Origin: a virus
Lineage: Duplodnaviria; Caudoviricetes
Direction: 5' to 3' (one strand)
IMG/VR virus record: IMGVR_UViG_3300035396_000186
Location: 1 to 64,000 of that record
DNA: 64,000 bases
Shown here: positions 61,680 through 63,378 of the stretch, piece by piece
How positions within the stretch are numbered: the stretch's first letter is position 1
Layout: the number at the start of each line of letters is the position of its first letter
Program-made: the position numbers and the translations under genes
The notes under the pieces: model-generated
What the model saw: only the letters and a program-made list of their open reading frames with translations
Database searches by the model: none
What the model was told of the DNA's origin: nothing

Positions 61680-61877
61680 GTTTCTATACTCCGTAGGTTA
61701 TCACAATTTGCTATAACCTCAATACTATAAATAGAAATACTTTAAGTTTCTATAAGAAGTTGTTACTTAATATTACAATATAAGATCGGGAAAATCAAGC
61801 GTATGTATGTAACCGAATTTGTTAGGAAGTAAAATTATGTTTCTATAGTTAGAATTTACTAAAAATTGTGCTAGCTA

Positions 61878-62035
61878 AGCCTACACCACACCAACCACCA
61901 AGCCTACCCTACCCCCCCTACCTACGTCCTGCCATCCCCATGCCATAGACCTAGCCTCAACCCATAGCCTATACCCTAGCCCATGCCTCATCATGCTGAT
62001 ACTACAGGCATACCCATAGACTATACCCTAAGCAT
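61878..62035. repeat. C-rich strand-skewed short-repeat tract
   Basis: CC(C/T)A-rich top strand; 17/19 direct repeat at 61961-61979 and 62013-62031. Confidence 0.7.
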
Positions 62036-62376: not shown

Positions 62377-62901
62377 ATGATTATATTCCTACTATCTCTA
62401 CTAATTTCGTTTAGCTACTCCGCAGATCAACTTGAGTTATCATATTCGTTTCTAAGTTATCATGTTCCTAATAACCCCACAGACTCACACAAGTACTCCA
62501 ACAAGCTCGGCAATGGTCAAGCCATAACTAATCCACTCTTAGGACTAAGACGTACCAGAACTAGTAAGAACGGCTCATATGAGGCGTTAACTGTGTTCTC
62601 TGGTTCTAACAGCGTTGGTACTAATATGTCAGGACTTGTATACTCTACAGGTGAGTTCATCGATTCTAACTGGTACATTGGTTTTGTAGTTGGTGGCTAT
62701 ACTCAATCTCGTAGTGAGTTCAGACACAGAGGTATTGAGACTATGGGAGTTGGGATCACTCACGATCAAGAGATTCAACCCATTGTTGGGGCAGAAGTAG
62801 GCTACAAGTATGATATCAATTCTAAGTGGTTTATTAGACAGAACAATGTTATAACCCCATTTATAACTAATCATAGTCTGTCCATAGGGTTCTCGTTCTG
62901 A
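62377..62901 (+). CDS. Small outer-membrane beta-barrel protein
   Basis: Signal peptide, alternating amphipathic strands, terminal LSIGFSF BAM-type signal. Confidence 0.7.
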   Translation: MIIFLLSLLISFSYSADQLELSYSFLSYHVPNNPTDSHKYSNKLGNGQAITNPLLGLRRTRTSKNGSYEALTVFSGSNSVGTNMSGLVYSTGEFIDSNWYIGFVVGGYTQSRSEFRHRGIETMGVGITHDQEIQPIVGAEVGYKYDINSKWFIRQNNVITPFITNHSLSIGFSF

Positions 62902-63004
62902 TTGACTAGAGCTGCGCAGTTTGTCACTGATTTAGTATCTCTTTGCTACCAGTTTAGTGTCAATCTGATACCGATGTAGTCAGTATGATACCATCTAGTT
63001 TTTA

Positions 63005-63200
63005 TTGAACATCCCTGTTATTAAGTACATCCCATTTTCCTAGAGTTGGCATTAAGCTTGCAATGTATATTGTTAAGCAGGACGAAGCGAGCAGCTTCAT
63101 GGAGAGTCGAAGGCGAGCTAGTAGAAGCTCAACGTCTTTAACTCTAAGTTCTAACCGGATAGCTCAAGGGTAACGCTATAGGGGATAACATCCCTACAAT
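63005..63200 (+). ncRNA. Candidate structured RNA upstream of the ribozyme
   Basis: Non-coding, GC-enriched, several nested complementary stems (see findings). Confidence 0.5.
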
Positions 63201-63210
63201 CAATCATAAC

Positions 63211-63282
63211 AAGACGAAATAAGGCGAGTACGTTTAAACGTAGTTGCCTTATAGTACGTTGATAACGTACCTGAAGAGTCTT
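63211..63282 (+). ncRNA. Hammerhead ribozyme, type II
   Basis: AAGAC-GAAA-stem III-TA-stem I (GTACGTT/AACGTAC)-CTGAAGA-GTCTT; all core nucleotides and the G10.1-C11.1 pair present; predicted cleavage after 63253. Confidence 0.9.
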
Positions 63283-63300
63283 AATAACAAGGGAGTATAT

Positions 63301-63378
63301 ATGACATTTGAAATATTCTTTTACACAACTGCAATCCTATTAGTATTCAAGTCTATCATAATAACAATGAGCAGATAG
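63301..63378 (+). CDS. 25-aa hydrophobic peptide
   Basis: GGGAG SD; MTFEIFFYTTAILLVFKSIIITMSR. Confidence 0.55.
   Translation: MTFEIFFYTTAILLVFKSIIITMSR

Follow-up and report, generated by a model that had tools for sequence, protein, structure and literature searches.

The 64,000-nt stretch analysed here (hereafter, the window) belongs to the genome of an 82,209-bp uncultured tailed phage from IMG/VR, which originates from a microbial-mat sample and has a GC content of ~32%. Comparison of this phage with 50,697 cultured phage records returned no nucleotide match, and the nearest cultured terminase is merely 30% identical to its own. Queried singly against IMG/VR, the 187-aa, 86-aa, and terminase proteins each retrieved no relatives, and zero homologues of the 86-aa early protein were found among 5.8 billion proteins. 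Among sequencing runs, the ribozyme sequence described below was listed for the probable source DNA sample alone and for no RNA run.

The structural genes and a block of small ORFs are divergently encoded, and the intergenic region between them contains a plus-strand tract of ~160 nt (61870–62030) that is G-poor, rich in C, A, and T, and marked by recurrent CCTA/CCATAG-like words. A 174-aa ORF follows, whose product was placed by ESM Atlas with small outer-membrane β-barrels of the PagP/OmpA-like type (cosine 0.96, TM 0.76) and for which a Pfam match was absent. As a lead only, we regard this ORF as a candidate phage-borne outer-membrane protein gene just 5′ of a promoter-like motif; an outer-membrane-type protein would imply a Gram-negative host. 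The 310 nt between the end of this ORF (62901) and the ribozyme are non-coding. They include the promoter-like motif itself, TGGCATTAAGCTTGCA at 63047–63062, which is the single exact TGGCAY-N5-KTGCW match in the 82-kb genome, lies on the same strand 150 nt 5′ of the ribozyme, and agrees with TGGCAC-N5-TTGCW, its GG and GC being one helical turn apart. The leader between motif and ribozyme had no Rfam match. On the other side of the ribozyme, a Shine-Dalgarno-like (SD) element and a first small ORF are succeeded by dozens of further small plus-strand ORFs (Table 1).

Table 1 Features of the ribozyme locus, the wider phage genome, and related loci.
Feature	Position	Strand	Basis or remark
Terminase, portal, and head genes		−	source phage genome
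Primase-helicase and polymerase genes		+	source phage genome
174-aa ORF	62377–62901	+	signal-peptide-like start; C-terminal ...GFSF
−24/−12 (sigma-54-type) promoter-like motif	63047–63062	+	exact TGGCAY-N5-KTGCW match
Non-coding leader, GC-richer and hairpin-rich	63073–63210	+	predicted hairpins; inferred boundaries
Stem II, 5′ strand AAGAC (C11.1 = 63215)	63211–63215	+	pairing with GTCTT; covaries in relatives
Core G12 A13 A14 A15.1 (GAAA)	63216–63219	+	invariant in relatives' alignments
Stem III hairpin, A15.1 to U16.1	63219–63252	+	9 bp, G·G mismatch, 5 bp, loop UUAA
H17 = A	63253	+	motif position; predicted scissile bond 63253/63254
Stem I hairpin, 7 bp, loop GAU	63254–63270	+	GTACGTT 63254–63260 / AACGTAC 63264–63270
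Core C3 U4 G5 A6 A7 G8 A9 (CUGAAGA)	63271–63277	+	sequence
Stem II, 3′ strand GUCUU (G10.1 = 63278)	63278–63282	+	pairing with AAGAC
SD-like AGGGAG, 8 nt past the ribozyme	63290–63295	+	sequence
First small ORF, 25 aa, hydrophobic	63301–63378	+	ATG at 63301, 18 nt past the ribozyme
Motifs in relative L023	2423–2548	−	example of −24/−12 motifs
Motifs in relative L029	5767–5892	−	example of −24/−12 motifs
Motifs in relative L019	3133–3166	−	example of −24/−12 motifs
Motifs in relative L037	3693–4052	−	further example of −24/−12 motifs
Motifs in relative L025	6145–6759		further example of −24/−12 motifs

A first-pass annotation of this DNA had called a complete type II hammerhead ribozyme at 63211–63282, and every element it listed is present there, base for base. 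The order of the helices is that of type II, with stems I and III capped and the 5-bp stem II open, and none of the invariant hammerhead positions deviates. All three junction-closing pairs are in place (G63278–C63215 as 10.1–11.1, G63254–C63270 as 1.1–2.1, and A63219–U63252 as 15.1–16.1), and the cleavage triplet reads A-U-A (63251–63253), with U16.1 at 63252 and an H17 other than G. Beyond A15.1–U16.1, stem III is built from TAAGGCGA paired with TTGCCTTA, including one G·U, and its distal part comprises a G·G mismatch (63228/63243), the helix TACGT/ACGTA, and a TTAA loop. Both the minimum free energy (MFE) and the centroid structures computed by RNAfold correspond to the hammerhead three-way junction (−27.7 kcal/mol, z −5.94), a stability reached by none of 200 shuffled sequences. 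Stem III has a pair probability of 0.98 in every folded context, and stems I and III both stay at 0.88 or above throughout; stem II, in contrast, loses by ~2 kcal/mol to competing pairings in long-context thermodynamic folds.

As a control for chance occurrence, we applied a lenient hammerhead descriptor to 300 dinucleotide-preserving shuffles of the whole genome. These yielded 1.5 matches per shuffled genome with a maximum of 16 contiguous stem pairs, versus 21 contiguous pairs in the window element (26 when stem III beyond the G·G mismatch is counted). Since such a scan covers very many windows, we do not take the shuffle statistics as the sole basis for the identity of the element. A descriptor scan of the full 82-kb genome in any topology revealed no second credible hammerhead, and allowing an extra base after A9 added none in the window or in the rest of the genome.

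The first-pass annotation had also proposed a search with Rfam type II models as a check, and here the ribozyme scored no match. None of the Rfam hammerhead models reported the element at gathering score. Relaxing the threshold to E ≤ 10 for a 301-nt slice did not change this, and RF02276 run on the whole source phage genome returned nothing; 63211–63282 thus stays below the 37-bit gathering threshold of this family. However, three textbook-perfect type II hammerheads on viral contigs elsewhere (L004, L006, and L007) escape this library as well, and even a pseudoknotted hammerhead from a relative of the phage (the upstream copy in L026) obtains 31.7 bits with RF02276, below the cut-off of 37. 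Because these models overlook clean hammerheads elsewhere, we attribute the negative outcome to narrow models and do not count it as evidence against the ribozyme.

Homologous elements were sought in two ways. A pattern search of IMG/VR with only the letters of stem II and the core gave four loci, at least three of which fold as perfect type II hammerheads; their stems I and III are unrelated in sequence to those of the window, while the 7-bp length of stem I is kept and its loop measures 3–4 nt. Relatives of the phage itself were reached only through terminase alignment. The terminase has more than 1,600 homologues at ~50–55% identity, many on contigs of 78–94 kb. With an alignment of these we fetched 80 related loci (terminase 43–56% identical) and called hammerheads by a strict descriptor scan together with a covariance model (R1). 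Fourteen distinct loci (terminase ~45–55% identical) carry hammerheads of type II or III, all of them on the strand opposite to the terminase gene and at the start of a divergent small-ORF block, so that the place of the ribozyme relative to terminase and strand switch is the same in the source phage and in all 14 positive relatives. Among loci holding at least 6 kb upstream of the terminase, 13 of 32 (~40%) are positive, a proportion that argues that the hammerhead is dispensable. In seven relatives without a hammerhead, the corresponding site showed no other ribozyme class at Rfam gathering score.

In an alignment of 22 distinct sequences, 95.1% of the cells at 16 modelled pairs are standard pairs, compared to 63% in shuffles and 27–40% with slid partners. 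Changes on both sides of the helix occur in 14 of the 16 modelled pairs, and the stem sequences are unrelated between relatives. This alignment was fitted to a model, and an alignment-free descriptor scan returned the same stems. A covariance model constructed from the relatives only, that is, without the window (R2), recognized the ribozyme with 43.4 bits (E 7.8e-11), the runner-up match within 84 kb scoring 12.1 bits. This match settles the identity of the element: 63211–63282 belongs to a family of hammerheads that has been conserved within this phage clade. The original call of a complete type II hammerhead consequently stands, with an intact core, the fold as described, and syntenic homologues that show compensatory stem changes.

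Several relatives possess paired ribozymes, 265–390 nt apart, with either a single small ORF or conserved non-coding sequence between them. Such pairs combine a type II with a type III hammerhead in L013, L035, and L063, and two type II hammerheads in L019, L051, and the L026 group. The cleavage triplet of the relatives ends in UC or UA.

With its GAU triloop, the window element has no complementary 3′ tail, and a pseudoknot between loop I and the 3′ tail is therefore absent from 63211–63282; a substitute tertiary contact was looked for in this segment and none was identified. Pseudoknots of 4–7 bp do occur in relatives with larger loops (both copies of L019, L055, and L051), and one is also present in the upstream copy of L026. 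Most type II hammerheads have this loop I–3′ tail pseudoknot, which is not obligatory but was shown to be needed for fast cleavage at low, physiological Mg2+ (PMC3088659). With the pseudoknot missing and no other contact identified, the in vivo rate could be low. Yet the triloop form—a 7-bp stem I and a 4–5 bp stem II of the type AAGNC/GNCUU—recurs with an intact core and different stems on at least eight independent contigs. Decay would not preserve such a form, and its recurrence argues that the triloop, pseudoknot-less hammerhead works.

Across 1.0 Mb of the relatives' loci, we counted 41 copies of the −24/−12 motif; shuffles averaged 2.2, and the reversed control gave 0 (~19-fold enrichment). 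Of the 41, 33 share the strand of the hammerhead; tandem copies are frequent, a few hundred bases 5′ of the first hammerhead, where the small-ORF operon begins. Neither sigma-54 nor enhancer-binding genes were found in the phage genome (no PF00158 or PF04552 match), and a literature search for natural sigma-54 promoters in phages found no report with the terms used. The motif at 63047–63062 probably serves as a promoter, with transcription predicted to start near 63073. The site had originally been labelled an "early operon leader", and it is the operon-leader part of this label that holds up as plausible, given the lone motif 150 nt 5′ of the ribozyme and its enrichment in relatives. On the 3′ side, 12 of 21 hammerheads examined are followed by an A-rich spacer, an SD-like purine-rich motif, and an ATG within 12–23 nt (18 in the window). 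On the 5′ side, many relatives have the ribozyme 0–20 nt after a protein-coding ORF; a Pfam search of the ORFs preceding hammerheads gave no families. The leader at 63073–63210 had no sequence in common with the regions 5′ of the relatives' hammerheads.

Type II hammerheads were described in 2011 and are abundant in bacteria and prophages (Perreault et al., PMC3088659). Arrays of them flank prophage genes, cleavage was observed in vitro and in vivo, and a transcript-processing hypothesis was put forward; in a halovirus, moreover, a transcript 5′ end was mapped ≤3 nucleotides from where a hammerhead variant cleaves (PMC3088659). Still, the role of self-cleaving ribozymes in phage and bacterial transcripts is regarded as open (review PMC6765202). 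The window element equals the known type II hammerheads (PMC3088659, RF02276) in its catalytic core, its permutation, and its phage polycistronic setting by small genes, but differs from the typical representative (RF02276) by a 3-nt loop I, the lack of a pseudoknot, and an unusually long, 14-bp stem III. Clustered prophage hammerheads (PMC3088659) find their like in the relatives with two copies 265–390 nt apart, whereas the window has a single copy, which sits within a leader 3′ of a promoter-like motif rather than separating two cistrons. The window ribozyme is a clean new example of an arrangement known since 2011, not a new kind of element, and a single further phage-operon hammerhead would be no surprise to specialists. 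What we add is its clade-wide positional conservation, the ribozyme–SD–ATG layout, the association with sigma-54-type promoter motifs, and a subclass lacking the pseudoknot, which recurs on viral contigs and goes undetected by the curated Rfam type II model.

The layout invites comparison with RiboJ-type insulators, in which an engineered hammerhead sits between promoter and ribosome-binding site, and cleavage trims the promoter-derived 5′ sequence to leave an mRNA with a hairpin-capped 5′-OH. Both share the order of promoter, leader, hammerhead, and ribosome-binding site; unlike the engineered parts, the window element is natural, has type II topology, and lacks an added downstream hairpin, and its insulating effect would be a matter of analogy. 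With promoter-like motif, leader, ribozyme, and ribosome-binding site in this order, the hypothesis that the hammerhead defines the mRNA 5′ end becomes directly testable.

We consider it likely that 63211–63282 specifies a functional type II hammerhead located within the 5′ leader of a phage small-gene operon, with cleavage and promoter use as predicted components. Transcription, probably from the motif at 63047–63062, would generate an RNA in which a structured leader of ~140 nt is followed in turn by ribozyme, ribosome-binding site, and first small ORF. The three-way junction would fold as soon as stem II has its 3′ strand transcribed, and the RNA would cut itself between A63253 and G63254. 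As the two products would be joined solely by the 5-bp stem II, they would be expected to separate. The 5′ cleavage product, predicted to comprise the leader (63073–63210) plus 63211–63253, would then have the long stem III hairpin as its 3′ end, bearing a 2′,3′-cyclic phosphate, and the 5′-OH of the downstream mRNA would sit immediately on the 7-bp stem I hairpin, with 47 nt remaining to the start codon. The presumable outcome is a defined, promoter-independent 5′ untranslated region, with mRNA stability and translation uncoupled from the leader. A 5′-OH end would also be a poor substrate for 5′-monophosphate-dependent RNase E or a 5′ exonuclease. By analogy with 5′-end-dependent decay and with synthetic ribozyme insulators, cleavage may thus stabilize or insulate the mRNA.

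Alternatively, the upstream RNA might be the main product—a discrete, structured species of ~180 nt (~63073–63253) acting as a decoy, sponge, or regulator—with the effect on the mRNA being secondary. The GC-richer, hairpin-rich nature of the leader and the very stable stem III hairpin at its end would suit such a role, as would the ~200 nt between the paired hammerheads of L026, L023, and L029, which are conserved, apparently do not code for protein, and include a few compensatory changes. However, we judge this unlikely: the leader has neither detectable sequence in common with the upstream regions of relatives nor an Rfam match, many relatives carry the ribozyme within 20 nt past a protein-coding ORF, and the conserved side is that of ribozyme, SD, and ATG. 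It is less probable still that cleavage is slow or lost and that the hammerhead, lacking a stem I–stem II contact, is a copy in decay of which just the two hairpins are retained. The GAU triloop without the 4–7 bp pseudoknot of L019, L055, and L051, the failing Rfam models, and the many relatives devoid of the element are what such decay might look like, but the core has suffered zero mutations, the triloop architecture recurs with an intact core on at least eight independent contigs, and, as Perreault et al. point out (PMC3088659), recognizable contacts are missing from many natural hammerheads.

A regulated switch appears very improbable. Here, a helix between 63013–63025 and 63280–63292 would make the SD and the 3′ arm of stem II inaccessible, such that cleavage and translation would depend on whether the transcript is a read-through or a local one. 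Its arms are complementary at 12 of 13 pairs, the helix is used in the MFE structure of 62990–63300, and its duplex energy has a z of −2.9 against shuffled upstream sequence; against this, comparable complementarity was found in 0 of 10 relatives' modules, the same 570-nt region has eight inverted repeats of similar quality, and the 5′ arm is upstream of the inferred transcription start. Being found only in the window and not conserved, this pairing probably arose by chance. That the hammerhead itself is a chance resemblance, with two unrelated hairpins lying beside core-like letters, has next to no probability. Lenient descriptors do hit shuffled genomes and the curated Rfam models are silent, but the element has 21–26 stem pairs, more than the 16 that 300 shuffles reached at most, and covariation among syntenic relatives together with the 43-bit match to the relatives-only model effectively refutes a coincidental origin.

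Beyond the single locus, the functional type II hammerhead that we favor could form part of a larger unit, a reading that is tentative and, to our mind, somewhat doubtful: a fixed module across a large clade of uncultured phages of 80–90 kb, in which a pseudoknot-less type II subclass serves as a natural 5′-UTR insulator. The module would open with one to three promoters of the sigma-54 type, continue through a leader or an initial small ORF to one or two hammerheads, and end in the SD–ATG unit. Its ribozyme subclass would be characterized by a 7-bp stem I with a triloop, a stem II of the AAGNC/GNCUU type, and an A-rich 3′ tail, and would strip off the promoter-proximal leader using an undescribed stem I–stem II contact. 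If true, phage hammerheads would gain a testable biological role, along with a structural subclass that has so far escaped both description and Rfam.

The L026/L023/L029 subgroup displays some particularities of its own. An extra U is inserted between A9 and G10.1 (CUGAUGA-U-G...), a conserved core-adjacent variation present in L026 (3023–3085), L023 (1819–1881), and L029 (4965–5025) as well as in upstream copies (e.g., L026 3288–3350). In these relatives, two type II hammerheads flank a stretch of ~200 nt (L026 3086–3350, L023 1882–2144, and L029 5026–5291, all on the minus strand), which is 86–89% identical, GC-rich, and marked by four compensatory pair changes, and in which no ORF of at least 55 aa was called. 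The two ribozymes may excise the bracketed stretch as a non-coding RNA. In the same group, the upstream ribozyme is preceded by a CT-rich tract. Finally, in an unrelated viral contig (L005; 10579–10965 and 11448–11522, both on the minus strand), we noted a hammerhead-pattern match with a weak stem I along with two tRNA-like genes, the match lying ~500 nt upstream of both of them on the same strand.
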